Made by a program: the position numbers and the translations under genes. Of a stretch of 64,000 bases of DNA, positions 3,282 through 38,012 are shown in pieces (the stretch's first letter is position 1; each line of letters opens with the position of its first letter). The stretch is from a phage. The stretch lies in sequence record PZ445440.1; one strand, given 5' to 3'. The notes beneath the pieces are model-generated. The model saw nothing but the letters and a program-made list of their open reading frames with translations. It was not told the origin of the DNA and did not search any database.

Positions 3282-3839
3282 TTAAAGATGAAGATACCAC
3301 CCGTTGTAGTTGCTCTTGCGGACGATTTTCTTTAGGTCTTCATGGTCTCCCACGAACTTTATAGAATAAGAGAAGACGTCAGGTGAGGTTTCTTTGACAT
3401 CTAATATAATAATGCAATCTGCGACTCGATGATTCAAGAAGGGCCCTATATTGATTCCATTACCACCTGGGTAATCACCACTGTATCCTGTGGTAACCGA
3501 AATCCATTTAGAATCTATCTGGTGCGTCTTGACTTCTACACGAATTCCACAATACTTGGGATGGGCTAACACGTCCCATGCATACGTGTACGGGTCTTCT
3601 ACATCTTCAATACCTTTATTAACATATCCGTCTAGCCAATTTGCTACTACATACTCTGCAAAGACCGCAACCTTACAACGTCGAACAACGCCTTCTTTTA
3701 TTTGTCCTGGATCTTGTTTCAACGAGTACCGAGCAGTATCAGCGATCTTAACCTTCATTTCGCTAGTCAAAAACTCATTCGACAGGATAAATGTCGGAAG
3801 ACTCTTCAGCCTCAACAACCCCAAGTTCGTCTTTACCAT
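3282..3839 (-). CDS. denB: putative endonuclease IV (DenB-like) by position and size; start placed at internal Met with GAGG SD
   Basis: 185 aa from MVKTNLG..., same length as T4 DenB as I recall; immediately downstream of rIIB as in T4; sequence identity not verified. Confidence 0.45.
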   Translation of the reverse strand: MVKTNLGLLRLKSLPTFILSNEFLTSEMKVKIADTARYSLKQDPGQIKEGVVRRCKVAVFAEYVVANWLDGYVNKGIEDVEDPYTYAWDVLAHPKYCGIRVEVKTHQIDSKWISVTTGYSGDYPGGNGINIGPFLNHRVADCIIILDVKETSPDVFSYSIKFVGDHEDLKKIVRKSNYNGWYLHL

Positions 3840-4062
3840 AGATACCTCTGATGTGTAGTTCGCCAAAATAAATGCGGTCTCCTTCTTCAAGATATTCTGC
3901 ATCTACCGGTGGGATTTCAATAACAACTTCGTCGCATTCTAACCAGCCGTAGTGTGCATCGCCAGGATGTTTTACCAATTTAGCACAATAAACTGATTTA
4001 CACTTATGGTGACCACGAAGATTAGCAATTTTGGATTCTGATACGTCAAATGGATGAATCAT
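3775..4062 (-). CDS. hypothetical protein (95 aa); doubtful because it overlaps the denB-like start by 65 nt
   Basis: ORF following the rIIB terminator; track ORF N-terminus (4063-4101) is the terminator hairpin, so start moved to ATG at 4062. Confidence 0.3.
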   Translation of the reverse strand: MIHPFDVSESKIANLRGHHKCKSVYCAKLVKHPGDAHYGWLECDEVVIEIPPVDAEYLEEGDRIYFGELHIRGIYGKDELGVVEAEESSDIYPVE

Positions 4063-4072
4063 AATTACCCCT

Positions 4073-4099
4073 AAAGAAAAAAAGGGGACCGAAGTCCCC
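4073..4099 (-). terminator. intrinsic terminator after rIIB (GGGGAC-UUCG-GUCCCC + U-tract)
   Basis: Plus strand aaagaaaaaaa-ggggac-cgaa-gtcccc; on minus-strand RNA a UUCG-tetraloop hairpin followed by U7. Confidence 0.65.
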
Positions 4100-4104
4100 A
4101 ATTA

Positions 4105-5040
4105 TTATTCTGCAAATAATTCAGTAACGTCTGAAATTACTTCATAACGACAAGTACGCATCTTAGCATCACCATAGTCAACCGGGATGGATACAACATC
4201 ACGTGGATGAACTTTAACTTTCACAACTTTATCTGAGCTTGAACCAAAGTGGCGAATATAAGATTTAGCACAAACGTGGAGACCGCGAGAACAGGTTTGA
4301 GTATCATCGTCGTTAACTCGAGTACGAGGCATTGAAACAACTTTACCTGGGGAGTTATCAAATGTACCACTATAGCAGTCTAAATAGTCCTTACGAACTA
4401 CTTTCCATGCATAGAAATGTCCGTCTTCAGTGATTTCAATATCATTTGCAACCAAGAAGTCGAATAAACGTTGTACAGCTTTTTCGCTCGGGTTTTCTAA
4501 CAGGTTTTCAAGGAACGGCAGATAGAATTTAAAGTCTTCACCTTTTTCCATGGAATCAATAATACGGTTAACCAGTCCTGAACGAATCTCTATACCTTGA
4601 TAAAATAAACTACCACCTTCAATAGTAACATTACCATCAACAAACTTAGTAATAGCTTTCTTGACGTTAATAAGTTCGACAGCTTTACTAAGGTTTCCTG
4701 CGACCAGATTAGCTTTAATTTCTTCAAAATTTGCATGACTTGATGGGGTCGCATTGTATGCTACGCGTCCTTCAATAATTGAAATAAATTTAGATGACGC
4801 GTTCCATACGATTTCAGGACGGTGTCCGCCGATAATAGGTTCATCATTTTCTGGGATCTGTTCTTCGTCTTCAAATTCAGCTGCTTTCTCTTCAGCTTTA
4901 AAATTCTTAACAATCTTACGAAGAGTATCTGTTGAAATGTCGAAGTAATCGGCAATTTCTTTACGAGTCCATTTGCCTGATTCAACCAGGCCGTAAGCTT
5001 CTAACTGTTCTTCTTGGGACAAGCATTTAATATTGTACAT
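4105..5040 (-). CDS. rIIB: rIIB membrane-associated protein
   Basis: 311 aa (T4 rIIB 312 aa as I recall); adjacent to rIIA; synteny. Confidence 0.85.
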   Translation of the reverse strand: MYNIKCLSQEEQLEAYGLVESGKWTRKEIADYFDISTDTLRKIVKNFKAEEKAAEFEDEEQIPENDEPIIGGHRPEIVWNASSKFISIIEGRVAYNATPSSHANFEEIKANLVAGNLSKAVELINVKKAITKFVDGNVTIEGGSLFYQGIEIRSGLVNRIIDSMEKGEDFKFYLPFLENLLENPSEKAVQRLFDFLVANDIEITEDGHFYAWKVVRKDYLDCYSGTFDNSPGKVVSMPRTRVNDDDTQTCSRGLHVCAKSYIRHFGSSSDKVVKVKVHPRDVVSIPVDYGDAKMRTCRYEVISDVTELFAE

Positions 5041-5049
5041 AATGTTTCC

Positions 5050-7263
5050 TTATTTGGCCGCTTCCACGGCCTTCATGAATTTAACGATTTGAGCGACCTG
5101 TTCTTTGGAAAGAGTACCACGTCGTCCCATGTATTCTGACACAATATGATAATTGGTTTCGAATTCAATAACCATTTTATCATCATTATCGTAAGCATTA
5201 TCTTTAAGCTTATCGAAAATTTTAGCACACAATTCTAACTTCTTATTCAGGTCTGTATTAGTAGCACCTGCGAATCGATTCCATCCCCAACGATTATTTA
5301 CTGTTGAGAGTTTTGCAAAGTCTTTACTGATTTCTTTGTTCTTAGAGCTAAAATACTTACTAAGGAAATTAAGCTCTTCATTACGAGTAATATGATTCAA
5401 ATAAGGCTGTGCTCTACGACTTGGTGATACATACTCATCATAATCTACTTTATCGATTAGCATAATATAGTCATTAATTGATTTTTCGAACAAGCATTCT
5501 ACTTCACCAAGTTTACGAACTTTCTTAGCAATCTGTGGACGAACTACATTGAACTCTTTAATACCTGACAAATCAGCAATACGGGTCAAGAAATTAGAGT
5601 CATAGTTCAACCAACCTTTATCTGCGTCAAGACATTCAGCATTAGAACGATTACGAACTATAGCATAACCTTGGATTTCATCAGCTTCACTCGCTGGAAT
5701 AAAGAGATCTTCTGATACCCAAACATCGTTTTCATTCTTAAAGAACCGATGAGCACTTGGCGATTTAGGACGAGGCTCATTAGTCCGTTTCCTGACTTCA
5801 ATCCATGGCTTAACGATTTGTAAAAGCTCTGAAGTCTTGTACATGTTAATGTTGTCGCCATCAAAGATAACTTTAAGGCGTTCCAGAAGTTTCATTGCAT
5901 CTTCGTCTGTAGGGTCAACGAATAGTACGCTTTTACCAAAACCGCGTGGAACTTTACCAGTTAATTTAACCTCGTCTTTAGACATTTCAATTGAATTAAG
6001 AGCTCGCATTAATGGAACGCGTCCCTTAACGTCGTCAATAACAATTTCAACGTTTTTAATGTTAATGCCAATCAGACTGTTAATTGAAATGGTTGCCGTT
6101 GAGCTACCGCTTTCACGAATACGACGAAGACGAGGGGATTCAACGATATCGTATACGACGCCAAGATTACACCATTCAGGTCCCATTTTAAAACGTTTGT
6201 ACAACTCAGAATAAGTTAGTTGTTCTTTAGAGTATTTCAGTGATTCAATATTAGACCCGGCCTTTTCCATGTATTTACGAGCGGTATAGCCAAGAGAATC
6301 AATTTCACGGAACACATGACGTGGGTATTTACAATCAATCCATTTCTTAGAATCTTCAGCGAACAATTTAGCATCGATTTCTGCAACGCGTTTATGGATA
6401 TTTGCTACTGTACGTTTATCAAATGACAATGCTTCACGAGACGGGGCTACATCTAGTTCACCCATAGGGAATTTAATATAAGCTGTAGTGCACCGCGTCA
6501 TCATCCATGTTTGTTCTTTAATAACACTTCCGATTGGATATACAATACCACCATAAACAGCCATGATATTACCACGTTCACCCCATGGAGCTTCCTTGGC
6601 CAAATATACATCGTCAAATTCTGGGAAGTATTTAATATCTTTAACACCGCGAACTTCTGCAATATCACCTAGAGGACGCATAACATATGCAATTTCGGAT
6701 GCGAACTTTTCAAAATCTTCCGGGTTAACCGGTACAACTACTTCTACACCCGTACGGTCATTAGGGCCCATCTTATCTACAAAGGTCGGCTTAATTTGTG
6801 GACCTGTGTCATCTTGGTAGATTACGTAACCACGAACTTCGCCATTGTGATAAGACGTAAGGTTAAACGTATCAGTATATGCTAGTGGAGCTTTAGAACC
6901 GAGTCCGAATCCACCAATGAAATCGTTACTCGATGTTTTAGTTGAAGCAAAATATGAGTTATAAATTCCTGGTTCTTCATCATTACCACGAATAGTGAAA
7001 TCACTCATACCAGGACCAAAGTCTCGAACTACAAAACGTGGGTCTAAACGACCTGGAGCCTGAACAATAAATTTATCAGTGCAACCATTAAGAATTTGTC
7101 CATCTATACAGTTTGTGATTAATTCACGTACACAAGCCAATTCTTTGTTTGTATAAAGGTCATTAGACAAAATCTTATAAACTTTACTATTGCCTTGAAT
7201 AGTGAATGCTGTGCTCTTACCGCCTGAACCAATAATCGTTTCTTTAGCCGTTTCAATAATCAT
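5050..7263 (-). CDS. rIIA: rIIA protein (GHKL ATPase-like N-terminal domain)
   Basis: 737 aa; N-terminus MIIETAKETIIGSGGKSTAFTI...LYTNKELACVRELITNCIDG resembles T4 rIIA. Confidence 0.9.
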   Translation of the reverse strand: MIIETAKETIIGSGGKSTAFTIQGNSKVYKILSNDLYTNKELACVRELITNCIDGQILNGCTDKFIVQAPGRLDPRFVVRDFGPGMSDFTIRGNDEEPGIYNSYFASTKTSSNDFIGGFGLGSKAPLAYTDTFNLTSYHNGEVRGYVIYQDDTGPQIKPTFVDKMGPNDRTGVEVVVPVNPEDFEKFASEIAYVMRPLGDIAEVRGVKDIKYFPEFDDVYLAKEAPWGERGNIMAVYGGIVYPIGSVIKEQTWMMTRCTTAYIKFPMGELDVAPSREALSFDKRTVANIHKRVAEIDAKLFAEDSKKWIDCKYPRHVFREIDSLGYTARKYMEKAGSNIESLKYSKEQLTYSELYKRFKMGPEWCNLGVVYDIVESPRLRRIRESGSSTATISINSLIGINIKNVEIVIDDVKGRVPLMRALNSIEMSKDEVKLTGKVPRGFGKSVLFVDPTDEDAMKLLERLKVIFDGDNINMYKTSELLQIVKPWIEVRKRTNEPRPKSPSAHRFFKNENDVWVSEDLFIPASEADEIQGYAIVRNRSNAECLDADKGWLNYDSNFLTRIADLSGIKEFNVVRPQIAKKVRKLGEVECLFEKSINDYIMLIDKVDYDEYVSPSRRAQPYLNHITRNEELNFLSKYFSSKNKEISKDFAKLSTVNNRWGWNRFAGATNTDLNKKLELCAKIFDKLKDNAYDNDDKMVIEFETNYHIVSEYMGRRGTLSKEQVAQIVKFMKAVEAAK

Positions 7264-7275
7264 ATTTTTCTCTCA

Positions 7276-7476
7276 TCACAAGTTACGTTTAAAAATTTCT
7301 GCTACTTCAAGAAGTTCTTCTTTAGTAGCTGTATCGGTTTGTATTTTATATCGAATTTCTTTAAAGCGTTCTTTAAAGGACTCGGCTGATTCGATATCAA
7401 AAAATCTTTGGATAAGCCGGAATTCCCGGAGCACTGCTTTATCAAAAAGTTCCAAGTCCACGTTATATGTTCTCAT
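7276..7476 (-). CDS. rIIA.1: rIIA.1-like small protein (66 aa)
   Basis: Small ORF directly upstream of rIIA; synteny with T4. Confidence 0.55.
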   Translation of the reverse strand: MRTYNVDLELFDKAVLREFRLIQRFFDIESAESFKERFKEIRYKIQTDTATKEELLEVAEIFKRNL

Positions 7477-7568
7477 AATATTCTCTTCAGTAGATTCCTA
7501 GGGCACTATTACTAAAGACCATATAATCTATCATCTTATGTGTAATAGTGCCTCAGGCTATTCAGGAT

Positions 7569-8669
7569 TTACGCTGTGAAGATTTTATCCCACATCGCAA
7601 CAACTGCATCTCGATTATACTTCTTCCATACTGCTTCAGCACGTTTAACTCGAGCTTCGTATGTGTCAGTGAATTCTAATACAGCTTTTGTGTAAAGCGC
7701 AACTACTTCTTTCTTAGGAGTAGAGGAATCAATTTCTACACGCACAGTATCTGGGTCGTATTCGAATGTCGCATGAGGATAATCCTTAAAAACTAACTGG
7801 ATTACAGGGACACCTTTAGAGATGGCTTCAATAGAACTATTCTCTACCGTACCTGTGTCAGGACACGTATTAATAAGTGCTTTAGCTGTTTTAAGACGTT
7901 CCATGATTTCACTGTGTGGAGCATCAATAATAACAGGATACTTAGCCGGTGGTGCCCATTTGCTTGGACAGTATCCTGCACCATTTTCGCCTAGTGCTTT
8001 AATCGCTTCAAGAGCAACATCAGTACGACGCATTTTAGTGTCATAACGTTGTGCACTAATAATCAGATCAGTCGCCGGAAGAACTTCAGGTTTCTCATTC
8101 AAACAAATAACTGGATAATCTTCGGCTTCAAACAACGGATTTGCTCGCCAATAATCATAATCAATTTTGTCAGTCAGACCTGAAGTCATATAACAATATT
8201 TGCGTTCAAATTCACGGAAGGCTTTAGTAGGAGCATAACTCTTACCACCATTCTTATGAATTTGAATAGTCTGGTCCCAAATTTGAACAATGCCACGAGA
8301 TACCGGTTCAAATGGTGTTGCCATAAAATTCTTATGAACTTTAGAGAGACCTGCGTCTTTAATTGCCTGAACGGTTAGTTTAGTCGGTTCCGTAGTAACA
8401 ACAAAATCGTATTCATGGATGTCGGCTAGTTCAACAATCTTACGAGCCATAGTATAACTCATACCTAGACTGAATTTAGTCAGATGACCAACAGGATGAT
8501 GATTAACTTTCCAGTCACCAAACGTGTCATTATCAAAACCGATATAATCAATATCGGCACCAATAGAAACTAAATATTTCAACACATTTAAATGTACTGC
8601 TTCAAGACCACCTTGTACACGTTCTGGGTTAAATGGGACTGCGCGCGATGGGATAAACATAACTTTCAT
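7569..8669 (-). CDS. GT-B fold glycosyltransferase, candidate DNA (hmC) arabinosyltransferase
   Basis: 366 aa; C-terminal GTVENSSIEAISKGVPVI resembles the GT1/GT4 nucleotide-sugar binding motif; occupies the T4 gene 60/mobA slot; no T4 counterpart. Confidence 0.6.
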   Translation of the reverse strand: MKVMFIPSRAVPFNPERVQGGLEAVHLNVLKYLVSIGADIDYIGFDNDTFGDWKVNHHPVGHLTKFSLGMSYTMARKIVELADIHEYDFVVTTEPTKLTVQAIKDAGLSKVHKNFMATPFEPVSRGIVQIWDQTIQIHKNGGKSYAPTKAFREFERKYCYMTSGLTDKIDYDYWRANPLFEAEDYPVICLNEKPEVLPATDLIISAQRYDTKMRRTDVALEAIKALGENGAGYCPSKWAPPAKYPVIIDAPHSEIMERLKTAKALINTCPDTGTVENSSIEAISKGVPVIQLVFKDYPHATFEYDPDTVRVEIDSSTPKKEVVALYTKAVLEFTDTYEARVKRAEAVWKKYNRDAVVAMWDKIFTA

Positions 8670-27105: not shown

Positions 27106-27468
27106 TTAAAAGAATTTAAATTTTTTCTTGGTCCGTTCATTAAAAGCTTGTTGTACTTGCATTGTAACACATTTTTCAACATGCGGTGCAAGTTCTGCTT
27201 TTCTGTCCTGGTCAAGAACTGCAAAGTCCATTACGATTTTACCATCAACCCAGTCTAGTTTTGTAATATAGACTATATGATGGGAACCGTCTTCAAGTGT
27301 AATCAGAATCTCTTGAATGACATTTTCCATTGCTGAACGGACAATTTTAAGAGATTCATTAAACACTCGTTCTTTGCGAATGTCTTCCCCTTCCGAAGAA
27401 GGGGATTCATCAACGATTTCTAGATTTAAATCATCGAGATTATTCATCGAAATCTTCCATTTCGTCAA
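27106..27468 (-). CDS. 40: gp40-like protein by position (120 aa)
   Basis: Located between uvsX and gene 41 as T4 gene 40; sequence identity not verified. Confidence 0.45.
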   Translation of the reverse strand: MTKWKISMNNLDDLNLEIVDESPSSEGEDIRKERVFNESLKIVRSAMENVIQEILITLEDGSHHIVYITKLDWVDGKIVMDFAVLDQDRKAELAPHVEKCVTMQVQQAFNERTKKKFKFF

Positions 27469-28612
27469 GGTCGTTTTCTATATCTGCTGCAGATGGAGCA
27501 TCAGAAGTTTTAACTGGAACCTTAGTTGTTGCTTTGCAATTAATAAGGTCGTTAACAGCGTCATCAACTTCTTTAATAGAAGAGATAGCACCTAGTTTAT
27601 ATTTGGTTTCAATTGCATCTCGGAAAGGTTTGTGTTTAAACAACGGTCCCCAGAATTCTACACAATCAGTAGCTTTAGCACGCCACGATTTCTCTTCACG
27701 AATCATTTCACCTGTTTCTTCGTCAAGGAATTCACGAGCATACCAACCAGCTTTAGGCTTAACTACAAAACCAATTTCAGTTGCCATTTCTAACAAGCCA
27801 CTGAATGGATCAATACCGCCATCAAAATTAACCGTGATTGGGAAAGTAGATTTCTCTTTAACTGTACGAGATTTTTCTGCTTTCAACGTGAAGTCATAAC
27901 CGGTCAATTCTGTACCTTCTTTAACCTGACGTTTAGAGATAAAAAATACCGTGTTGGCAGAGTAAAGAATACCTGTACCACCACCCATAATCTCTTTAGG
28001 ATATAGTCCGCCGATTTCCATTGCTGTATGGTTGATTGCAACACACGGAATATCTTTAATAGTCAGATAAGGAGTCACAATGCGGAACAGAGATTTAAGT
28101 GCCTTAGCACGAGACATATCACCTACAACTTTTTCGTTCAACGCATCTTCGGTTTCTTTCTTAGATGCAGTATTACCGATTGAATCGATAAAGATAATAA
28201 CTTTATCACCGCGTTCAATAGCGTCAAGCTGATTAGTCATATCGACTTTAAGTTGTTCGACAGACTGAATTGGTGTATGAACTACGCGGTCTAAATCAAC
28301 ACCCATCGAACGGAAGTAAGATTCTGAAGCACCGAATTCTGAGTCATAAAACAAACAGATCGCATCTTTATATTTCTTCATATACGCTGCGACCATAGTT
28401 AGTCCAAACAATGTTTTAAAATGTTTAGAAGGTGCAGCAAAAATAGTCAAGCCTGATTGCAATCCTGCATTCAGAGCACCACCTAGTGCAATATTCAACA
28501 TCGGAATACGAGTAGGGACTTCATCACGATTATTAAACAGCTTAGACTTAGTCAAGTCTGCAGTCATTTTAGAAGTAGAAGCTTTAATCAGACGAGATTT
28601 TAAATCAGACAT
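27440..28612 (-). CDS. uvsX: UvsX recombinase (RecA/Rad51 family)
   Basis: 390 aa; MSDLKSRLIKASTSK... and WYAREFLDEETGEMIREEKSWRAK match T4 UvsX from memory. Confidence 0.95.
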   Translation of the reverse strand: MSDLKSRLIKASTSKMTADLTKSKLFNNRDEVPTRIPMLNIALGGALNAGLQSGLTIFAAPSKHFKTLFGLTMVAAYMKKYKDAICLFYDSEFGASESYFRSMGVDLDRVVHTPIQSVEQLKVDMTNQLDAIERGDKVIIFIDSIGNTASKKETEDALNEKVVGDMSRAKALKSLFRIVTPYLTIKDIPCVAINHTAMEIGGLYPKEIMGGGTGILYSANTVFFISKRQVKEGTELTGYDFTLKAEKSRTVKEKSTFPITVNFDGGIDPFSGLLEMATEIGFVVKPKAGWYAREFLDEETGEMIREEKSWRAKATDCVEFWGPLFKHKPFRDAIETKYKLGAISSIKEVDDAVNDLINCKATTKVPVKTSDAPSAADIENDLDEMEDFDE

Positions 28613-28665
28613 TGTATTTTTCCATAGGCATCATTATATTTTACTCATGTTTAAAAGATAAGATG

Positions 28666-28693
28666 ATTATATACTAAGGGTTATACAGCATTT
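28666..28693 (-). promoter_or_regulatory. candidate MotA-dependent middle promoter for uvsX
   Basis: Minus AAATGCTGTA (MotA-box-like, one mismatch to TGCTTtA) followed 12 nt later by TATAAT. Confidence 0.35.
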
Positions 28694-28710
28694 AAAACTT
28701 TAAATGGCTC

Positions 28711-29259
28711 TTAACGAGCCCATTTGATGATTTCTGTAATCAAATCATTACGTTCGCTTGCATTAAATCCTATAACTTTGTTAGCACCATCATGATTAAG
28801 TAATTGATACGTTTGGATTTTGTTATGAATTGCAAACTCTTCAAAATGTGAAATGACTGTATTAAAACCGAATGAAGACAAAGTAATAAGGTCGTCTTCA
28901 AAACTTTCAGTCATTTCGTTACGTGTTAAAATAATTGTGAACACATCATGGTTTTGGCAAAGACGAATATAATCCTGTTCATAAACGTCAAGAACCGAGT
29001 CCGCATCTTGTCGAATACGTCCATAAACCCAGTTACTAATATACCCACGGTCTAACAGATAAATCTTAGTAGGGTCTAAATAATTCAACATCGTTTCGAA
29101 ACAGCCAACTTCGTTTCGAGACTTAACATCGAAACGCCCATCAACTGTTCGTTTAGGGAAATCAATCTTTACATATCTTTCACTAATTTCCATTACGTCA
29201 TTAATGAAAGTTGTTTTACCAGCATTATCCGGGCCGTCTACTAAAATAATTTTAGCCAT
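28711..29259 (-). CDS. P-loop nucleotide/nucleoside kinase-like protein (thymidylate-kinase-like fold)
   Basis: 182 aa; Walker A ILVDGPDNAGKTT and a DRGY motif (YLLDRGYISNWVYG) reminiscent of dNMP kinases; GAGGAA SD; sits in the T4 beta-gt slot. Confidence 0.6.
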   Translation of the reverse strand: MAKIILVDGPDNAGKTTFINDVMEISERYVKIDFPKRTVDGRFDVKSRNEVGCFETMLNYLDPTKIYLLDRGYISNWVYGRIRQDADSVLDVYEQDYIRLCQNHDVFTIILTRNEMTESFEDDLITLSSFGFNTVISHFEEFAIHNKIQTYQLLNHDGANKVIGFNASERNDLITEIIKWAR

Positions 29260-29260
29260 T

Positions 29261-30160
29261 TTATTCCTCGATTACGACATCTTCGTATTTAGGTATATTA
29301 TACGGTGAAGAAATTAAAGCATTAAAGTAGATGAACTCACCAAGACCTGGATGGAATACTTCTTCAGGATTTTCGAAATATTGAATCTTCGGACGTCCTT
29401 TAAGAATTTGATAGTACTCAGTTTTAGTTGGTTTAAAAATTCGAATCAGCGCTTCTTCAGGATACTTATTTCTGTCGAAGCTATTATTTGGATCGGTTAT
29501 ATAAAGCGGTTGACCTAATTGAATTGCACATTCAACCACTTGTTCAAAACGATAGCATGGGTCACTAATTCGAAATGGATGAAAAATACCATCTAGATGA
29601 ATAGGAGCCAAATCACCTACAAGACGCTGCATGATGGAAGGACGTATAACTTTCTGGGTTATGATAATCTTATTACCATCGGCACCTGCGTTAACCAGCA
29701 CTTCTTTTTGACGTTCATTCAACACAGTAGTTTGAAGTGAACGATTAACAGACAACATATCGGTTTTTAAGAATTCGTCAATATAAAAACGTGGTTTATT
29801 AGGGTCTGCAGTGATATTGAAATTGAATTCTACATCAAAAGCGCCGTCATATCCAGTGATATCTGTGATTAGAAAATCACAATCATAATAAGCAATTAAT
29901 GAATCAACCACAAATTCATTTTCAGACCAGAAATATTTACGAGTGTTATACGCGTTATCTTTATACCATAATGGAACAAACTTAAATTCTGGGAAAAGAC
30001 GTTCACATTCTTTAATATCAGATGCATTACGTGGATATGTAATCACATCACCCGGATTAGCACGGTGCAAATGAAGTTGGAAGTTGCCATCCTTAAGGAT
30101 AGCATACTGTCCAGTTTCATAAGACCGCATACTCAAGATAGGTACGCGGAAAATAGCCAT
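29261..30160 (-). CDS. hypothetical protein (299 aa), candidate novel DNA sugar-transferase
   Basis: No recognisable motifs; translationally coupled to gene 42 (stop/start overlap); occupies the beta-gt position. Confidence 0.6.
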   Translation of the reverse strand: MAIFRVPILSMRSYETGQYAILKDGNFQLHLHRANPGDVITYPRNASDIKECERLFPEFKFVPLWYKDNAYNTRKYFWSENEFVVDSLIAYYDCDFLITDITGYDGAFDVEFNFNITADPNKPRFYIDEFLKTDMLSVNRSLQTTVLNERQKEVLVNAGADGNKIIITQKVIRPSIMQRLVGDLAPIHLDGIFHPFRISDPCYRFEQVVECAIQLGQPLYITDPNNSFDRNKYPEEALIRIFKPTKTEYYQILKGRPKIQYFENPEEVFHPGLGEFIYFNALISSPYNIPKYEDVVIEE

Positions 30161-30876
30161 TAGTCAAGGAATCCTTTAACATAATCAAAATCACGTTCAA
30201 ACACATGGGCACTTACCATGGTATGAGTATAATCACCAACTTCTACACCACATTCGTTAGCGATATAATGAAGTAATTTTCCTTGGAGATAAAAATCCAA
30301 CTGCATAACAACAGCACAGTTCTGAGAACGCATATGACAGTGGGTATAAAGCTTACCATCACGAATATAATAAGTCACTGAGTCAGTACATGGATATTCA
30401 AGCGTTTCGTCTGAATCAAGCAAAGCCTGATCAGAACTTTCTAGAATTTGGAACACAACTCTTCGAGAGTTAGGCTTCTCTTTAAGTTCTTTTAGAAGAG
30501 CTGGTAATTGGGCCGCAATGCGAGGACCGTAGAAAGTGTTGAAGTTCGCAGGCAAAGCATCTGATTTTGGTTTAGAAATAAATTTAGCGACATTAGGATA
30601 TGCCTTAAACGCTTCTTCTGCATCAGTACCACCAGAAATCATAAACTTCCAGAAGTCTTCGGCATATTCATAAGAGATGCGGTTAATACGTGGGTCGGTC
30701 ATTTTGAATGATGATGGAGTGTCAACAACTACTGTCATAGACCCAATTTCATTACAACGTCCAATACGAGAATCAGTTACGAATTCCGGGTTTTCTAAAA
30801 TTTCACGATTGACTGCTTTAAATGCGGTTTGAAAATCTGCGGCTTTGATATATTTCATTGTGTTATGTTTTCCCAT
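30160..30876 (-). CDS. 42: dCMP hydroxymethylase gp42 (thymidylate synthase family)
   Basis: 238 aa; thymidylate-synthase-like region HCHMRSQNCAVVMQLDFYLQ; synteny upstream of the uvsX block. Confidence 0.7.
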   Translation of the reverse strand: MGKHNTMKYIKAADFQTAFKAVNREILENPEFVTDSRIGRCNEIGSMTVVVDTPSSFKMTDPRINRISYEYAEDFWKFMISGGTDAEEAFKAYPNVAKFISKPKSDALPANFNTFYGPRIAAQLPALLKELKEKPNSRRVVFQILESSDQALLDSDETLEYPCTDSVTYYIRDGKLYTHCHMRSQNCAVVMQLDFYLQGKLLHYIANECGVEVGDYTHTMVSAHVFERDFDYVKGFLD

Positions 30877-30918
30877 GTTTACCTCAATACAATTTATTAT
30901 ATACTCGATTCGTAAAGC

Positions 30919-31158
30919 TTATTTGAATTTCTTGGCAGTGTTGATATACCGTAAAGCTTCAGCATCGATACTTCCAAGAACACTATGAAGAAATGCATCA
31001 GCGTAGTATTCTAATTGAACAGGTTCTTTAATCACTTTAGCCGCTTTGGTTTCAAACAGGCCCATCAGGGCCTTTTTAAGAATTTGTTCGTTGCTGTTAA
31101 TTTTAATAGTCAAAATCTCTTCATTAAGTTGGTGGTTAAAAGTTTTTCTAGAAATCAT
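30919..31158 (-). CDS. hypothetical protein (79 aa)
   Basis: ORF with ATGA overlap to upstream gene. Confidence 0.55.
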   Translation of the reverse strand: MISRKTFNHQLNEEILTIKINSNEQILKKALMGLFETKAAKVIKEPVQLEYYADAFLHSVLGSIDAEALRYINTAKKFK

Positions 31159-32315
31159 TCCGGGTACCTCAAAGCGTCGTCAGAGTTAGTTATATCAATA
31201 ATAGATATAGAATTTTCTGATAACCCATTTTTAGATAACTGACGTTTATAATATCTTTCACAATATGTACACGTCGTCCCGCAGATTTCATTAGCACAAT
31301 CGAAATCTGGATGTCTGAACCACCTTTTTTCTAAAAAGCCATCTAACAAAGAGGTTTCAATATTTACTGTATGTGAAAACTCAGTTTCGTTTTCAAGAGT
31401 GAAAATAGTCTCTAAAGGCTTCCACAGTTCTAACAAATTACCTTCAAACTTTTCAGAAGCGTATGCTTCAAGAACTTTCAAAATGTAGTCTGTGCTACCT
31501 GTACGTCCTGAAACTTTGAATTGAGTGATACCAATATCATTATAAAGTTTCAAATCTTGGGGACGAACAAAACGAGTTCTCAACCAGTTAAATGGGTCTG
31601 TATCACGAGCTTTAATACAGTGCTGCATTGGATACCCGTTTAAGGATTTAGCATCATCAGCTGTAACATCAGTACTATGGAAAATATAGCAAGAGTCACG
31701 ATAGCTACAATGTGTTGTATACCCTTTACCAGCATTAGAACAGAACTCATTTACAAGAACTTCAAATATTATATTGTTCTTATTGCAAAACTCTGCTGCA
31801 CGCTTCAGGAAAGAAACTGAACGGTTCTTATGAATTCCACAGCAGACCTTTTTGATATTATATTGGTCATGCAAGTATTTGATTTGAGTTACAGCATCGA
31901 CATGTAGAATTGTTGAAACTTCAATCTCAATGTCTTTATTGACTTCACGAACAATTTCCATAACAACAGGGTTAGCGATAGTAATACGCCATACGCCTAT
32001 TGACCAAAGATACTGAACATAATCCTGAATAGCTTTCTTCTTCCACTCAACTAGTTCTCTTTTTGAACCAGGATTTATCGTGTTGAGTGTATAGTTAAAG
32101 CAAATACCTAATTCGTTACAACGTTTAACGTAATCTTCTAACATCTTTTTGTCAACGTCAGGAAGCCTAAAATCAGGTCTGGCTGCTACAAAAGCCATTT
32201 CTCTTGTAGAGCCGTATACTTCATTTATCAAGCTATTAGGATAAGTTTTATTGAGCTCTACGATTTTATCAAGAAGAGCTAAATCAAAATTCGTTCCGAT
32301 TTTAAAAGTATTCAT
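31155..32315 (-). CDS. Cys-rich protein of unknown function (386 aa); weak peptidase-U32-like resemblance
   Basis: Cys clusters (EVLVNEFCSNAGKGYTTHCSYRDSCY; CANEICGTTCTYC); loose resemblance to the U32 signature region; not verifiable without a profile search. Confidence 0.6.
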   Translation of the reverse strand: MNTFKIGTNFDLALLDKIVELNKTYPNSLINEVYGSTREMAFVAARPDFRLPDVDKKMLEDYVKRCNELGICFNYTLNTINPGSKRELVEWKKKAIQDYVQYLWSIGVWRITIANPVVMEIVREVNKDIEIEVSTILHVDAVTQIKYLHDQYNIKKVCCGIHKNRSVSFLKRAAEFCNKNNIIFEVLVNEFCSNAGKGYTTHCSYRDSCYIFHSTDVTADDAKSLNGYPMQHCIKARDTDPFNWLRTRFVRPQDLKLYNDIGITQFKVSGRTGSTDYILKVLEAYASEKFEGNLLELWKPLETIFTLENETEFSHTVNIETSLLDGFLEKRWFRHPDFDCANEICGTTCTYCERYYKRQLSKNGLSENSISIIDITNSDDALRYPE

Positions 32316-32371
32316 TTTTTTGCATCTCGCGTTAATTGATGCGATGGTTTTTGCAGGTCTTACTTAAATTA

Positions 32372-32758
32372 TTATAGATTCGGTTTATATGATTTAAATG
32401 TTTCGAATTCGCCTTTATTCATAAGAGCTTTGAATTCGTCAGGACGCATAGCTTTGTCGTCGATAATCCAATCATATACTGGTTTATGTGTTAGCAAATT
32501 ATGGTACTTCAATCCAATGTTTGCTAAGTTCTGAATCAGACTTGGGAGAATGTCGATTGCTATACGACCAGGACCTACTGACTTCATACCGCGAGCAGTG
32601 TAAAGCGTTATGGTATGCCCTGCATCATACAGGGCATTAATGGCAGACACCATTTCGACGTCTGGTTTGAAGTTCACATAATCACGGTTGTTATTCCACT
32701 CTGTTATACAATCATCGACATCAAAACAAAGATTAAGCATGTTTTCTACACGGTGCAT
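32372..32758 (-). CDS. HAD-superfamily phosphatase (small, cap-less)
   Basis: Motif I FDVDDCI, motif II ITLYTARG, motif III/IV K...DWIIDDKA; ATG overlaps the stop of the upstream NTase/kinase gene. Confidence 0.7.
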   Translation of the reverse strand: MHRVENMLNLCFDVDDCITEWNNNRDYVNFKPDVEMVSAINALYDAGHTITLYTARGMKSVGPGRIAIDILPSLIQNLANIGLKYHNLLTHKPVYDWIIDDKAMRPDEFKALMNKGEFETFKSYKPNL

Positions 32759-34443
32759 TAGATTCGTTCCCATTGATGAGTGATATCGCCACCGATTGGA
32801 CGATAGGAAACACCAGTTTCTTTATCAGTTAGTACCCATTTACCAGGATTTTTTGTAATAAGAGTAGCCGTTACAGGTTCTGCTACGTCATAACTAATAG
32901 AGCCGTCTTGAAGTACACGGCCCATGTTACGTAATTGCTTAGTCAGAAGTTCCATACCTTTATAATATGCGGCTACCGCTTTAAGTGGATTATTCTTGAA
33001 ATAACCACCTAATGCAATCCAGATAATTGCCACCGCCAAATGATGATACTCGTTAAACGAACTCATCTTTCCATATTTGTAAATTAATGGATTGATGTTA
33101 ATAGTCACATTACAAGTTGTTTCATCAATAGTAAACTGTCCCCAGGTCGGATTAGCATTGAATTCATCATAACCTGAAACAGCGTAAAGCACTTTAGCTT
33201 CATCGTACAATTTTGGCCCGTAAATCTTGGTTTCACCAAAATATCCACGAGGGTCGATAAACTTGACTTCGCCATTATCAGTAATCATAGTATTACTGAA
33301 GTTCGGGTCACCATGAATAACAGAGTACTGTCCCTGAGAACGGTTATGATAACGAATAAGGTGTTCTAAAGCTTGTTTCAACATTGGCTTCAGACGTCCA
33401 ATCTTAGTGTAGTTCACATGTGTGATTTTACCAAATGAATCAATCAATGGTTGAATGCTTTCACAACGATCAATAACTTTCGTATAGAATTCTTTAGTGA
33501 AATCACGACGGACAGTTTCAGGACTTACAAAATAAGTGTCTGTGCTGAATTTCAGTGCATCTAAAATTGCATCAACAATTTGTGGACGAGCAAGACTTGA
33601 TTTGGATTTAATATATTCAAATGCCGGCTTACCTTTAATGCGTTCCATTTCAAAGTTATTTTCATTAACAGAAACTAACTGAGGAACTGAATCTGATTTC
33701 ACTTTCAAGTACCACGAAATCTCATCTTTCTGAAGAGCTCGACCCTGTTCGGTTAATGCGAATTTAGTTACAGTTTCTTCACCAATTTCAACTGCATTAA
33801 AACTACGATTAAGTTCACGAACTTCATGAGCTTTTTCAAGTTTAGGCATATCACCTAAATCAATTAGATTCATAAGCTCTGATTTATTGAATGCGCCGCT
33901 GTAAAGGAATTCTACGAAATCACGTCCTTTGCAGTATTCATGAATTTCCTCATCAGTAGAACCCATATAGAATTCCCAGTCTTTGAACTGATAAATTCCT
34001 ACAACATTACCGCCTGTTGCACCTACATTAGTGATATTTTCACCGTCGAAATTATATCGACATTCGTCACCCTTAACATAGATTGCGTTAACATTCCAAG
34101 ACCATGAACCAAAATCAGGAATAATATCACACCAGTTAACAATTACGTTATGGCCGTCTAAATCTTTGTGTAATTTAGCAAGAGCATAAGCAGAACCATA
34201 CGCTTCATCAACTGTACGAATAGTCACATTGAACCCTTCTTGCTCACAATAAGCTCGAACAGTTTCAGCAAATTTTGAATGAACTACTACAATAATTTCA
34301 TCTGCGCCAAGGTCAGAATAAATTGTATACAAATTGCTCAGAATAGTGTCTTGTTTATAGTTAACAAGCACCTTAGGAATATGATGCGTTATTGGATACA
34401 AACGAGTTGCCAGTCCAGCACCAAGAATAACAGCTTTTTTCAT
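32758..34443 (-). CDS. bifunctional sugar-1-phosphate nucleotidyltransferase / anomeric sugar kinase (LicC-like N-domain + APH/choline-kinase-like C-domain)
   Basis: 561 aa; N-terminal MKKAVILGAGLATRLYPITHHIPKVLV (NTP-transferase signature); C-terminal VIHGDPNFSNTMI (Brenner HGDxxxxN) and FIDPRGYFG. Confidence 0.8.
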   Translation of the reverse strand: MKKAVILGAGLATRLYPITHHIPKVLVNYKQDTILSNLYTIYSDLGADEIIVVVHSKFAETVRAYCEQEGFNVTIRTVDEAYGSAYALAKLHKDLDGHNVIVNWCDIIPDFGSWSWNVNAIYVKGDECRYNFDGENITNVGATGGNVVGIYQFKDWEFYMGSTDEEIHEYCKGRDFVEFLYSGAFNKSELMNLIDLGDMPKLEKAHEVRELNRSFNAVEIGEETVTKFALTEQGRALQKDEISWYLKVKSDSVPQLVSVNENNFEMERIKGKPAFEYIKSKSSLARPQIVDAILDALKFSTDTYFVSPETVRRDFTKEFYTKVIDRCESIQPLIDSFGKITHVNYTKIGRLKPMLKQALEHLIRYHNRSQGQYSVIHGDPNFSNTMITDNGEVKFIDPRGYFGETKIYGPKLYDEAKVLYAVSGYDEFNANPTWGQFTIDETTCNVTININPLIYKYGKMSSFNEYHHLAVAIIWIALGGYFKNNPLKAVAAYYKGMELLTKQLRNMGRVLQDGSISYDVAEPVTATLITKNPGKWVLTDKETGVSYRPIGGDITHQWERI

Positions 34444-34484
34444 GTTGTGGTCCTCATTGGTAAGTAGAAGTATTGTACACTATT

Positions 34485-34628
34485 CTAGTTAAAGCATTCA
34501 TACTTCGCTTGTAGTCCAATCATAATCCATCCAATTACAAGTGTTGGAATCATTACTGGAGCCGTTAAGCTCCAGTAGATAGTCATGACAAGCATCAATA
34601 GTAAAAGTCCTATTGTTATTGTTTTCAT
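34485..34628 (-). CDS. small membrane protein (47 aa)
   Basis: Hand translation MKTITIGLLLLMLVMTIYWSLTAPVMIPTLVIGWIMIGLQAKYECFN; ATGA overlap with the isomerase stop. Confidence 0.4.
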   Translation of the reverse strand: MKTITIGLLLLMLVMTIYWSLTAPVMIPTLVIGWIMIGLQAKYECFN

Positions 34629-35260
34629 TGTTCGCCTCGTAACATGGCACCTAGTGCGCCGCCTGGATGGAACTTAAGGAAATCATTAGAGGTAAATCCA
34701 CGTTCAGACGAAAGGTTGATAGCGAACGTATCGATAAGCGCTAACAACAATGTAGTAGACATTGTCGGAGCTAAAGAGTTCTCGTCAACTTCTACCGCGA
34801 TACCGGTACAGAACGTATAATCAAAAAGAGCTTCGTATTCTTGTGGAATGTCAGGGTTACAATGTAACAGAATCTGTTTAACCTGAGGACGAATCATACG
34901 AAGATGTTTAGCAACACCTATCATTTCTTCAGTCTTACCAGAACGACTGATGTGAACTAATACATCATTAGGTGCAATAAATCCTGCGTCGCCATGAGAA
35001 TAATGCCCGGTGTTCAAGTACATACTCGGGATACCTAGTGAAGCAAAAGTCTCGGAAGCTTTAGTTGCGATATTAGCATTCTTACCAACACCTGTAATAA
35101 TTACACGACTTTCGTAATTACTCAGTCCAGGGCGACGAAGAGTTTCAAGAATAGCATTATATCGGGCAGGGTTTTGACTAATTATTTTAGCCATAGTGGC
35201 AAGAGATGAAGCTTGTTTTACGATTGCGTCAATAGCGATAGTGATTGGTGTAGTTTTCAT
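34625..35260 (-). CDS. D-arabinose-5-phosphate isomerase, SIS domain only (KdsD/GutQ/KpsF-like, no CBS pair)
   Basis: 211 aa; strong similarity to E. coli KdsD SIS domain from memory: GVGKNANIATKASETFASLGIPS, HGDAGFIAPNDVLVHISRSGKTEE, LAPTMSTTLLLALID, HPGGALG. Confidence 0.85.
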   Translation of the reverse strand: MKTTPITIAIDAIVKQASSLATMAKIISQNPARYNAILETLRRPGLSNYESRVIITGVGKNANIATKASETFASLGIPSMYLNTGHYSHGDAGFIAPNDVLVHISRSGKTEEMIGVAKHLRMIRPQVKQILLHCNPDIPQEYEALFDYTFCTGIAVEVDENSLAPTMSTTLLLALIDTFAINLSSERGFTSNDFLKFHPGGALGAMLRGEQ

Positions 35261-35300
35261 ATTTCTCTCATTTAATTAGTTGGCCATCCTTGGCATTATA

Positions 35301-38012
35301 TCAAAAATCAAACATATCGAACAGAGATGCTTTCTTCTCGTAATCGAGTTTCGCTGCTGATGTGAATCCTTCAAGTGGTTTAATAAATGTCTTCTCAAGG
35401 AGAACAGTGTAGTCCATCCAATGAAGTACATCATCTTTGATTAAATCAGTGATTTCCGTACCAGAAGGCCATGCGATACATTTATCACCGAACGGGTTTC
35501 CATCACGTAAAGGCAGAACGTATACCTTTTCGCCTTCTACAACTTGTGGAGCATCAATATTACCTTTGATAGCTCGGTTATATGTCAGAATTCCACGAAT
35601 ATGGAATGGGCATTTAGGTCCTGGATATCCACCTACATCATATTTAGCAATGTTATTCGCAGAAGATACCGACGCGATGCTAATATAATTCAATTGACGG
35701 AATTCTTTTTCAAACTCTTTAAAATATTCTTGTAATGATTCTTCACCTTCTTGAAGCATACGACGAATACATTCTTTAAGAGCTTTCTGTACTGCTTTAG
35801 GGGTCGAAGATTTCTGAGTTTCTAGACCCATGATTTTGAGTTTAGGCTCAGCGTAACGAGTACCTTCCATATCCCACACGTTTAATGCATAACGTTTCTT
35901 ACCAGTCCAGAATCCACCAATACCTTTAGAACCGAGCGGAGGACCAGCGATAGCTTCTCGGTCCATGAACATTAAGTGTTGTTTATTGTTCATGTATTCA
36001 CACATTTCACGGAAACCTCTATCAATAGCAGGTTCCATACGTTCACGTGCAAACTTATCTAAGAAGTCTACCCAATGGTTGGTATCACGGAATTTAGATT
36101 CACCAACCTTATCGATAATTTTATCAGCAGATACGTAAATAGAGTCGGTATCACCATAAAGAACGAAAGCTTCACCTTCTGTACCACAAACTTCATTCAG
36201 ATATTCATTAACTTTACGTTCAATCCACTGTAAAGCCATTTGCCCAAATGTTGTGATTGCAGTAGCATTACGCAAATCATAATAACGGAACCAAACGTTT
36301 CCAAGTGCACCATAAAGTGAGTTGATAAGCAATTTACGGTTAATTTGTGCAGTCATACCTGCAACTTCAGTACGTTGAGCTCTAAACAACATTTCATTAA
36401 GAGATTTAGCAGACAACTTTTTAATCTTTTCTTTAATCTCATCACTGAAGTCGAAACGATAATCAACATCTAATGGTTCGTCAACAGAAAGATTAGGATT
36501 ATGCAATGCCTCTTTAATTATTTCACCATTACGTTGAGCTGCAAGCATGTAACCTTTATGTTCTTTACGTTGATTAAAGACCTTAGTGATTTCAGTTGGA
36601 ACTACACCATCACGGTCTTTATAATACATCATGCCGTTAGGAGAGCAACTGTACACATCTGAAGGACGTTCAGCGATTGCGTTAATATAATCATGCAGTG
36701 GAGCTACTTTAAACGTTCCTGCTATTGTTTCCGGGCTAATATTCACTTGGCGAATAATACTTGGATACAGAGATGTAAGGTCGAAACTCATTACATATTT
36801 GTATCGATTTGGAATAGGTTCCTTAACAAAAGCGCCAGGATAAGGTTGAACCGGATGAGAACGACCTTGTGGAATCACCTTGTTCTGCTCTTTAAGGCTA
36901 TTAAAAATAATAGCATCCCATGTTTTAATTGGGCTAAACACAGATTGAATCTGTATCTTAGCATAATAACCCATGTCCAAACTCAAGTTGATGAACTGAC
37001 GCTTAGCATCAATTTGCAATACACGATACACGTCGATAATGTTATAAGAAATATATCGTTGGTGATTGCTTTCACGAAGCTTAGAAATAGGGCCGTCATA
37101 TTTCAGTTTACCGACGTTCAATTCAAATTCTGAAATGTAATCCAGAGAATACGACGGTTGATTGGTAAAAGAGAATTTTTTGTAAAGGTCAATGTAATCA
37201 AGAACAGAGATACCGAACAATGTAATGATTTCACGAGAACCATACATGTTTTCGATAACTTTAACACGAGTTTTACGATGTGGTGATAAACGTTTCGCAG
37301 TAGATTCGCCAAAAATATTCTTGATTCTGTTATACACATATGGAATATCAAATGACTCAACGTTCCATCCAGTCAAAATGACAGGAGTTTTCTGTTGCCA
37401 GAAGTTGAGATATTCCATCAACAATTCTTTTTCGTTATCGAACGGCATATAAACAATTTTGTCGATAATTTCGGATGGAACTTCATCACCGCCTTGTTCT
37501 TGAAGCTTAGCAGCGATTTCAATAGACCATTCTTCTACATTACCATATGGAGAATTCAATAGATCAAATACGTAGAACCTGTCGTCAATTGAGTCATAAT
37601 GGGTGATAGCATCAATCGGATGTTTTGCTTGTGACGGCTCAGGGAACCCATCCGGAGATGTTACTTCGATGTCGAAGTTAGCCACACGAATTTTTGTATG
37701 GTCGTATTTGATTTCATAGTTATAAGTGTCAGACAAATACGCTAATTTGAAATCGTCCATGCCAAGTGCTTCAAGTCCGATATCTTCCATGCGTTTAATC
37801 CATTGTGAGGCATCACGCATATTAGCGAACAACTTACGAGTACACGGCTTACCGTAGATATCGAAATATTTCGTAGCCTGACTTTCTGGACAATGAGCAA
37901 ACAGTGATGGTTTATATTCTACTTCACGAGTACGTTCACGGCCATTAGAATCGATGTAACGTTCAAAAATTGAATCACCAATCTGTTCAACCGTTAAGTA
38001 AAATTCTTTCAT
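35301..38012 (-). CDS. 43: DNA polymerase gp43 (family B, 3'-5' exonuclease)
   Basis: 903 aa; exo motifs FDIEV, polymerase motifs DxxSLYPS and YGDTDS; sequence matches the RB69 polymerase from memory. Confidence 0.97.
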   Translation of the reverse strand: MKEFYLTVEQIGDSIFERYIDSNGRERTREVEYKPSLFAHCPESQATKYFDIYGKPCTRKLFANMRDASQWIKRMEDIGLEALGMDDFKLAYLSDTYNYEIKYDHTKIRVANFDIEVTSPDGFPEPSQAKHPIDAITHYDSIDDRFYVFDLLNSPYGNVEEWSIEIAAKLQEQGGDEVPSEIIDKIVYMPFDNEKELLMEYLNFWQQKTPVILTGWNVESFDIPYVYNRIKNIFGESTAKRLSPHRKTRVKVIENMYGSREIITLFGISVLDYIDLYKKFSFTNQPSYSLDYISEFELNVGKLKYDGPISKLRESNHQRYISYNIIDVYRVLQIDAKRQFINLSLDMGYYAKIQIQSVFSPIKTWDAIIFNSLKEQNKVIPQGRSHPVQPYPGAFVKEPIPNRYKYVMSFDLTSLYPSIIRQVNISPETIAGTFKVAPLHDYINAIAERPSDVYSCSPNGMMYYKDRDGVVPTEITKVFNQRKEHKGYMLAAQRNGEIIKEALHNPNLSVDEPLDVDYRFDFSDEIKEKIKKLSAKSLNEMLFRAQRTEVAGMTAQINRKLLINSLYGALGNVWFRYYDLRNATAITTFGQMALQWIERKVNEYLNEVCGTEGEAFVLYGDTDSIYVSADKIIDKVGESKFRDTNHWVDFLDKFARERMEPAIDRGFREMCEYMNNKQHLMFMDREAIAGPPLGSKGIGGFWTGKKRYALNVWDMEGTRYAEPKLKIMGLETQKSSTPKAVQKALKECIRRMLQEGEESLQEYFKEFEKEFRQLNYISIASVSSANNIAKYDVGGYPGPKCPFHIRGILTYNRAIKGNIDAPQVVEGEKVYVLPLRDGNPFGDKCIAWPSGTEITDLIKDDVLHWMDYTVLLEKTFIKPLEGFTSAAKLDYEKKASLFDMFDF

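Follow-up and report, generated by a model that had tools for sequence, protein, structure and literature searches.

Which enzymes occupy the place where T4 carries its β-glucosyltransferase gene, and what do they contribute to DNA modification? The question is raised by two neighbouring open reading frames (ORFs), encoding proteins of 182 and 299 amino acids (aa), in a 64,000-nucleotide stretch of phage DNA (record PZ445440.1) that was analysed as a whole and is called here the window. A reading made from the letters alone (the original prediction) had described them as a thymidylate-kinase-like P-loop protein and a protein with no recognisable motifs that together replace β-glucosyltransferase. 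Both ORFs, as well as the kinase motifs GPDNAGKTT (residues 9-17) and DRGY (residues 70-73), are present where that reading had placed them (Table 1), and the pair does occupy the β-gt position, the T4 order at the equivalent place being uvsX-segA-β-gt-42. We propose that the 299-aa protein is the first arabinofuranosyltransferase, and the 182-aa protein a deoxynucleoside monophosphate (dNMP) kinase for the 5-substituted dCMP, of a pathway leading to arabinosylated 5-hydroxycytosine (5hoC) in DNA. We give this joint assignment of predicted activities a probability of about 0.62.

The window corresponds to Escherichia phage ChristianSchoenbein (Bas46, MZ501056.1, Mosigvirus), with 100% DNA identity over the queried segments of 1.6-2.3 kb. 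Segment 28600-30200 is 97-99% identical to ~150 further Mosigvirus genomes including RB69, whose equivalent region shares 98.5% DNA identity with the glycosyltransferase (GT) and kinase region of the window. GenBank MZ501056.1 labels the two products 'putative thymidylate kinase' (bas46_0140) and 'hypothetical protein' (bas46_0141). Both ORFs are real genes, since relatives of the GT and of the kinase are found in 349 and 344 of 50,697 phage records, respectively, and both alignments contain many invariant columns.

The gene pair is already known, and its predicted roles are annotated in recent literature. RB69 gp46:47 is listed as arabinosyltransferase 1 and gp45 as nucleotide kinase (PMC13326640, Table 1), and Thomas et al. 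2018 (PMC6024577) had earlier proposed ORF003c as an arabinosyltransferase and described an eight-gene module between polymerase and uvsX. New in this analysis are the conservation of a synthase-GT-kinase triad, the genome-level co-occurrence of GT and kinase, and the existence of GT-kinase fusions.

The 299-aa protein is predicted to have a compact GT-B fold

The 299-aa protein indeed lacks recognisable motifs at the sequence level: no family matched it in Pfam (E <= 0.1) or NCBIfam, and a PDB profile search with its family retrieved no solved structure below E 0.49. The fold was assigned from structure prediction only. Structure prediction for transferase folds, which the original prediction had put forward as a check, yielded a very confident AlphaFold2 model based on 64 homologues (predicted local distance difference test (pLDDT) 95.3, predicted template modelling score (pTM) 0.89). 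The model consists of two Rossmann-like β/α/β domains with an interdomain cleft, the arrangement of a GT-B fold. Its closest structural neighbours are retaining GT4 enzymes: the top Foldseek TM-scores belong to GT4 transferases (MshA 0.61-0.63), and the lowest E-values (~1e-6) to UDP-GlcNAc 2-epimerases, which have the same fold. Judged by this model, the protein has a canonical, merely compact GT-B fold. Of the earlier proposal of a DNA sugar-transferase of non-canonical fold, the function therefore survives, the protein being very probably a glycosyltransferase of the DNA-modification pathway, and the non-canonical fold does not.

Membership of GT4 was not supported by profile, as there was no match to Pfam Glycos_transf_1. 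The GT4 EX7E motif can be found in this protein as E267-x7-E275, but in the alignment of 64 members most have K or T at residue 267, and the motif is not conserved in the family; conserved instead is [ED]263-x6-H270-P-G-x2-[ED]275. Neither the sequence nor the closest folds relate the protein to the T4 β-glucosyltransferase family (GT63). It does match PHROG 3891 at 7.9e-156 over 298 of its 299 residues, and this full-length match, together with synteny behind a ThyA homologue carrying D169N, places it in the RB69 gp46:47/PHROG 3891 group ('arabinosyltransferase 1'). The family is small, with 231 cluster representatives at E <= 0.001 among 1.84 billion, and all members with an identifiable source come from a phage or viral contig. 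The GT4-type retaining neighbours would fit the α linkage of the base-proximal arabinofuranose (Araf) (PMC13326640), provided that the donor is UDP-α-D-Araf.

The acceptor base is 5-hydroxycytosine

The ATG of the 299-aa ORF overlaps the stop codon of the upstream ThyA-family gene (GACTAATGG, TAATG; shared base 30160). The translational coupling that had been predicted thus stands as a start/stop overlap, but the partner is misnamed: the neighbouring gene encodes a 5-hydroxy-dCMP synthase and not a gp42-type dCMP hydroxymethylase. Its active-site signature is L143E, C146, D169N and N177D, whereas T4 gp42 retains D169, in a residue comparison with E. coli ThyA and T4 gp42 as references. D169N is the published diagnostic of 5-hydroxy-dCMP synthases, and RB69 gp48 has been shown to produce 5-hydroxy-dCMP, with a flavin and with oxygen derived from O2 (PMC13326640). 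The solved structures closest to the synthase of the window were deposited in one series with the HY126 glycosyltransferase. Furthermore, two papers, both citing Mahler 2025, report 5-arabinose-arabinose-hydroxy-cytosine in Bas46 DNA (bioRxiv 10.64898/2025.12.19.695335; PMC12923530).

The identity of the synthase and the base reported for Bas46 DNA therefore define the acceptor as 5hoC. The 5-hydroxymethylcytosine (hmC) DNA proposed earlier for a transfer assay is the wrong acceptor, since the synthase carries D169N and is ~99% identical to the solved HY126 enzyme. The GenBank labels 'dCMP hydroxymethylase' (30160-30876) and 'putative hmC-arabinosyltransferase' (7569-8669) predate the 5-hydroxycytosine finding and are now misleading.

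The number of glycosyltransferases tracks the number of sugars

A second GT, of 366 aa, which the original prediction had not mentioned, is encoded in the interval that separates rIIA from the gene for the gp39 topoisomerase subunit. This protein is virtually the same as the HY126 enzyme of known structure (9iqz/9ir0), has no sequence similarity to the 299-aa GT, and likely adds the second arabinose. Relatives of the 366-aa type occur in 212 phage records, exclusively from Mosigvirus and Acinetobacter phages, the latter having two copies. Serratia phage LC53 carries a 299-type GT, and no Serratia phage was among the matches to the 366-type. LC53 DNA is reported to be mono-arabinosylated, that of Bas46 and RB69 to carry two arabinoses and that of DLP3 three (PMC13326640; bioRxiv 10.64898/2025.12.19.695335). 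The number of GTs follows the number of sugars: one in LC53 (299-type only), two in Bas46 and RB69 (with one 366-type in addition) and three in DLP3 (with two). The 299-type GT is constant across all of these phages, which fits a base-proximal transferase.

The 182-aa protein is related to dNMP kinases

The description of the P-loop protein as thymidylate-kinase-like is borne out by a nucleoside monophosphate (NMP) kinase fold, with the P-loop GxxxxGK[ST] and an acidic P-loop residue, and by a match to PHROG 761 (labelled thymidylate kinase) at 3e-45. GPDNAGKTT and DRGY both fall in invariant alignment columns, D70 and R71 being invariant in the family and followed by G-Y, and D11 presumably lies at the P-loop position that touches the 3'-OH of dTMP in thymidylate kinases. 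The LID segment (residues 112-128) contains a single Arg (R113) and an invariant acidic pair, D122 and D123. The protein does not reach the thymidylate kinase families themselves: PF02223 gave no match at E <= 0.1, and TIGR00041 scored 16.2 bits against a cut-off of 83.

A nucleotide or a sugar intermediate had been suggested as substrate, and of the two we favour the nucleotide. A kinase acting on a sugar intermediate is unlikely, because the protein has the fold and the P-loop aspartate of a dNMP kinase and because sugar phosphorylation is already attributed to the 561-aa enzyme of the same cassette, in its C-terminal domain (PMC13326640).

Synthase, glycosyltransferase and kinase form a conserved triad

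Relatives of the GT were located in 56 IMG/VR loci, of which 53 extend beyond the GT and are informative. A ThyA homologue lies directly upstream of the GT in 51 loci, and its residue at the D169 position is Asn in 50 and Ser in one, which ties the GT family to 5-hydroxy-dCMP synthases. The ThyA homologue with Ser at this position stands beside a distant GT relative in L050 (~3621-4300), and for it the published signature gives no product prediction. A homologous kinase is part of the cluster in 49 of the 53 informative loci, where it abuts or overlaps the 3' end of the GT gene (36 loci), abuts its 5' end (2) or is found a few genes upstream (11). The triad is kept even in contigs L029-L042, which have no arabinose-donor genes within 6 kb. 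At the genome level, the host breakdowns of the GT and kinase records are near-identical.

Metagenomic cluster representatives include seven GT-kinase fusions and one kinase-GT fusion (Table 1). The fused domain is homologous to the 182-aa kinase (hhalign 94.3%, E 1e-7, 135 columns), and one fused kinase domain gives a sub-threshold Thymidylate_kin match. Neither a narrow kinase hidden Markov model nor the HAD protein of the window detected the fused domains in the long GT homologues, and recognition of the kinase required profile-profile comparison. Fusions of an N-terminal KdsC-like HAD domain to the GT were also found, on the basis of a weak Pfam match and DxDG/GDD motifs identified by eye.

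The position of the kinase gene varies. In JS98-like, Marfavirus-like and some other phages (L004-L006, L010-L014, L019, L024, L025 and L062 1965-2504) it does not follow the GT but lies between the HAD phosphatase gene and the U32 or ThyA gene, and it has only 36-42% identity to the kinase of the window; the JS98-like group has no U32 gene.

Proposed pathway and alternatives

In the pathway that we propose, the ThyA homologue would make 5-hydroxy-dCMP, which would be phosphorylated by the 182-aa kinase, in parallel to the gp1-type kinase, and then by host Ndk. The polymerase would incorporate the 5-hydroxy-dC nucleotide into DNA, where the 299-aa GT, possibly in complex with the kinase, would move the first, base-proximal Araf from UDP-Araf to the 5-OH of 5hoC; the 366-aa GT would then add the second arabinose. 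We lean slightly towards this order of events, in which the 299-aa GT would act on DNA only after the kinase, Ndk and the polymerase. In favour of DNA as the acceptor are the T4 precedent, the ease with which 5-hydroxy-dC is incorporated, and the lack of unglycosylated 5hoC in virion DNA despite a gp1-type kinase competing for 5-hydroxy-dCMP.

Several observations weigh against the assignment. For the GT, these include the missing Pfam match, the lack of a conserved EX7E motif and an acidic isoelectric point (pI) of 5.13 (family median 5.1) compared with 9.05 for T4 β-glucosyltransferase, although we treat pI as weak evidence only of DNA binding. DLP3 gp79, an orthologue of the 299-aa GT, did not arabinosylate 5hoC-DNA with either UDP-Araf or UDP-arabinopyranose ('data not shown'), and individual DLP3 GTs are reported as inactive on 5hoC-DNA (PMC13326640). 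The Thanatos homologue TH1_063 is reported to form UDP-xylose from UTP and xylose-1-phosphate (PMC12838424). For the kinase, the LID region seems to lack the usual arginines; moreover, the gp1-type kinase of RB69 phosphorylates 5-hydroxy-dCMP (PMC13326640), so that a simple order of steps leaves a second, strictly conserved kinase unexplained. Finally, the literature covered, which lacked He et al. 2026 and Mahler et al. 2025, contained no demonstration of the GT and kinase activities and no test of the kinase.

Part of this evidence reads differently if the first sugar is added before replication. The 299-aa GT would then arabinosylate 5-hydroxy-dCMP, the kinase would phosphorylate the resulting Ara-5-hydroxy-dCMP, which may be too bulky to be accepted by the gp1-type kinase, and the polymerase would incorporate the glycosylated dCTP analogue, leaving only the second sugar to be added on DNA. 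Such a route is consistent with the tight coupling of GT and kinase, including fusion in both orders, with the strict conservation of the kinase even though the gp1-type kinase handles 5-hydroxy-dCMP, and with the acidic nature of the GT. It is also consistent with the inactivity of DLP3 gp79 on 5hoC-DNA when later GTs are active on DNA with the same donor, and the authors of that work cannot distinguish the nucleotide from DNA as acceptor (PMC13326640).

We nevertheless regard a pre-replicative route as rather unlikely. Expression of the synthase and the gp1-type kinase alone suffices for ready incorporation of 5-hydroxy-dC (PMC13326640), so that DNA should contain unglycosylated 5hoC unless there is also a GT that acts on DNA. 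The HAD-GT fusions, if their HAD domain is an AfhF-type sugar phosphatase, join non-consecutive steps, meaning that a fusion proves a shared pathway and not adjacent steps. The negative in vitro result for DLP3 is weak evidence, and we know of no natural pre-replicative glycosylation of a dNTP.

The kinase might instead be an ordinary dTMP kinase that raises the supply of dTTP and is unrelated to modification, as its thymidylate-kinase fold and database label would suggest. This is very improbable: the kinase occurs almost only alongside a 299-type GT (344 versus 349 records, with the same host profile), abuts the GT or is fused to it, and falls below the Pfam and NCBIfam thresholds for thymidylate kinases. 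In addition, T4-like phages have a gp1 kinase that acts on dTMP. Least credible is a 299-aa protein that serves as a sugar-nucleotide enzyme, either a UDP-pentose pyrophosphorylase or a UDP-sugar 2-epimerase-like protein, which would accord with the in vitro synthesis of UDP-xylose by TH1_063 (PMC12838424) and with the Foldseek E-values for UDP-GlcNAc 2-epimerases.

The surrounding cassette

A minus-strand cassette for arabinosylated 5-hydroxycytosine DNA runs from 35260 to 28711 and ends with the two ORFs. Its D169N ThyA homologue, SIS isomerase, bifunctional enzyme, HAD phosphatase and GTs identify it as a member of the arabinosyl-5-hydroxycytosine cluster (RB69 gp45-55/HY126 Afh). Proteins near-identical to the isomerase, the bifunctional kinase/uridylyltransferase and the HAD phosphatase together yield UDP-arabinofuranose (PMC13326640). 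The kinase ATG is one base past the GT stop codon and is preceded by GAGGA. A scan of 27300-35400 for promoters and terminators showed no excess over shuffled sequence (26 versus 30.0 expected and 4 versus 4.0, respectively); therefore, no boundaries of transcription units can be claimed in this region.

Table 1. Genes of the arabinosylation pathway in the window, and related features in metagenomic loci
Feature	Position	Strand	Evidence or members
182-aa thymidylate-kinase-fold P-loop kinase (Bas46_0140; RB69 gp45 orthologue)	28711..29259	-	GPDNAGKTT and DRGY motifs; PHROG 761 3e-45
299-aa compact GT-B glycosyltransferase, predicted first arabinofuranosyltransferase (Bas46_0141; RB69 gp46:47 orthologue)	29261..30160	-	PHROG 3891 7.9e-156
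ThyA-family 5-hydroxy-dCMP synthase (GenBank 'dCMP hydroxymethylase')	30160..30876	-	E 4.5e-162, ~99% identity to PDB 9iqc/9ir2/9iqu
79-aa ORF, PHROG 8601 (function unknown in PHROG)	30919..31158	-	Overlaps U32 gene end by 4 nt
386-aa peptidase-U32-family protein, C-terminal Cys cluster (DCANEICGTTCTYC)	31155..32315	-	PF01136 7.3e-11; weak UbiU match
133-aa HAD-type phosphatase (AfhF/RB69 gp51 equivalent)	32372..32773	-	PHROG 1238 5e-43; role per PMC13326640
561-aa bifunctional sugar-1-phosphate nucleotidyltransferase/kinase (AfhE/RB69 gp52:53 equivalent)	32758..34443	-	PF00483 8.5e-10 N-terminal; PHROG 4098; weak kinase-family matches at residues 308-409; role described in PMC13326640
211-aa SIS-domain arabinose-5-phosphate isomerase (RB69 gp55 equivalent)	34625..35260	-	PF01380 SIS 9.3e-10; record label phosphosugar isomerase
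366-aa second GT-B glycosyltransferase (RB69 ORF003c homologue)	7569..8669	-	E 2.3e-247 to PDB 9iqz/9ir0 'phage HY126 glycosyltransferase'
Fusion proteins (TMK-like kinase domain or HAD domain)			P0254, P0259, P0265, P0286, P0240, P0268, P0281, P0257; P0167, P0176, P0178, P0190, P0191, P0226, P0252
Chorismate mutase loci			L003-L005, L007-L009, L015-L017, L020, L021, L024, L025; also L062 3658-3903

A U32-family protein is a candidate second hydroxylase

The 386-aa U32 protein is the most conserved protein of the cluster, with at least 80% identity in all 222 phage records that carry it. Only phages that infect Enterobacterales or Shewanella have it, and it is absent from all 57 Acinetobacter phage records in which GT and kinase occur. 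An 80-aa AroQ chorismate mutase (PF01817, 39.5 bits) is encoded between the U32 and synthase genes in 13 of 15 T4-like IMG/VR loci with U32, as well as in Klebsiella phage PWKp16, where the last 4 nt of the U32 gene are also the first 4 of the mutase gene. The chorismate mutase gene is located behind U32 in most genera, and not in this Mosigvirus.

U32-family proteins with C-terminal Cys clusters are responsible for the prephenate- and Fe-S-dependent formation of 5-hydroxycytidine in rRNA (PMC5727448), and prephenate is an oxygen donor in anaerobic hydroxylation (PMC10990095). Because of this rRNA chemistry, the use of prephenate as oxygen donor, the neighbouring chorismate mutase and the facultatively anaerobic hosts, the phage U32 protein, listed in PMC13326640 merely as 'sugar or heterocycle reductase', is a good candidate for a cytosine-C5 hydroxylase that works without O2 and would back up the O2-dependent synthase in facultative anaerobes.

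A U32 gene lies directly behind the GT relative, with no ThyA homologue, in three Pol III alpha-type contigs (L049 5466-8051, L051 4301-6865 and L053 ~5956-8000). Upstream of the GT, L049 and L051 also encode a dUTPase_2-like protein and a TMK-like kinase, the latter abutting the GT 5' end; no kinase was detected in L053. These contigs may represent a variant module in which the U32 protein replaces the 5-hydroxy-dCMP synthase.

The 79-aa ORF next to the U32 gene was considered as a divergent chorismate mutase and rejected: it is not similar to the Klebsiella phage enzyme, it matches nothing in Pfam or NCBIfam, and the two genes coexist in L008 and L015-L017.

Significance and comparison with known systems

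A large group of T4-like phages owes its protection from restriction enzymes, CRISPR and DNA glycosylases to arabinosyl-5-hydroxycytosine; the group includes candidates for phage therapy against E. coli, Klebsiella and Acinetobacter. As the predicted 299-aa enzyme would catalyse the base-proximal sugar step, all later decoration depends on it. Establishing the acceptor of this first transferase, DNA or nucleotide, and the role of its partner kinase would complete the pathway; the answers would supply a tool for the in vitro preparation of arabinosylated DNA, and a new route to hypermodified DNA could come to light. Should the pre-replicative route prove true, it would be, to our knowledge, the first natural pathway to build glycosylated DNA from a glycosylated precursor, and it would explain why a second dNMP kinase is retained.

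The 299-aa protein, in its predicted role as first arabinofuranosyltransferase, resembles T4 β-glucosyltransferase (GT63) in being encoded directly downstream of a ThyA-family gene and beside uvsX and in having a GT-B fold; the T4 enzyme likewise uses a UDP-sugar to decorate the C5 hydroxyl of a modified cytosine. Compared with retaining GT4-type GT-B enzymes (sucrose-phosphate synthase 6kih, BshA, PimA and MshA) and T4 α-glucosyltransferase, it is 60-100 residues shorter, has no Glycos_transf_1 match and has the EX7E motif replaced, while its predicted donor is a furanose and its predicted acceptor a pyrimidine 5-OH. The HY126 glycosyltransferase (9iqz/9ir0, equivalent to RB69 ORF003c) belongs to another, narrower family (212 versus 349 records) and is the predicted second-sugar enzyme.

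The 182-aa kinase shares with Tmk and T4 gp1 dNMP kinase the P-loop NMP-kinase fold, the acidic P-loop residue and, putatively, a DR-type motif after strand 3. It differs from them in having DRGY instead of DRY/DRH, an acidic LID (FEDDLI) with one Arg (R113) and scores below the family thresholds, and it belongs to a different sequence family from the gp1-type kinase of RB69, which encodes both. RB69 gp46:47 with gp45 and DLP3 gp79 with gp78 show no substantive difference from the Bas46 pair, the division of the GT into ORF046c and ORF047c in the RB69 record being due to a sequencing error (PMC13326640).

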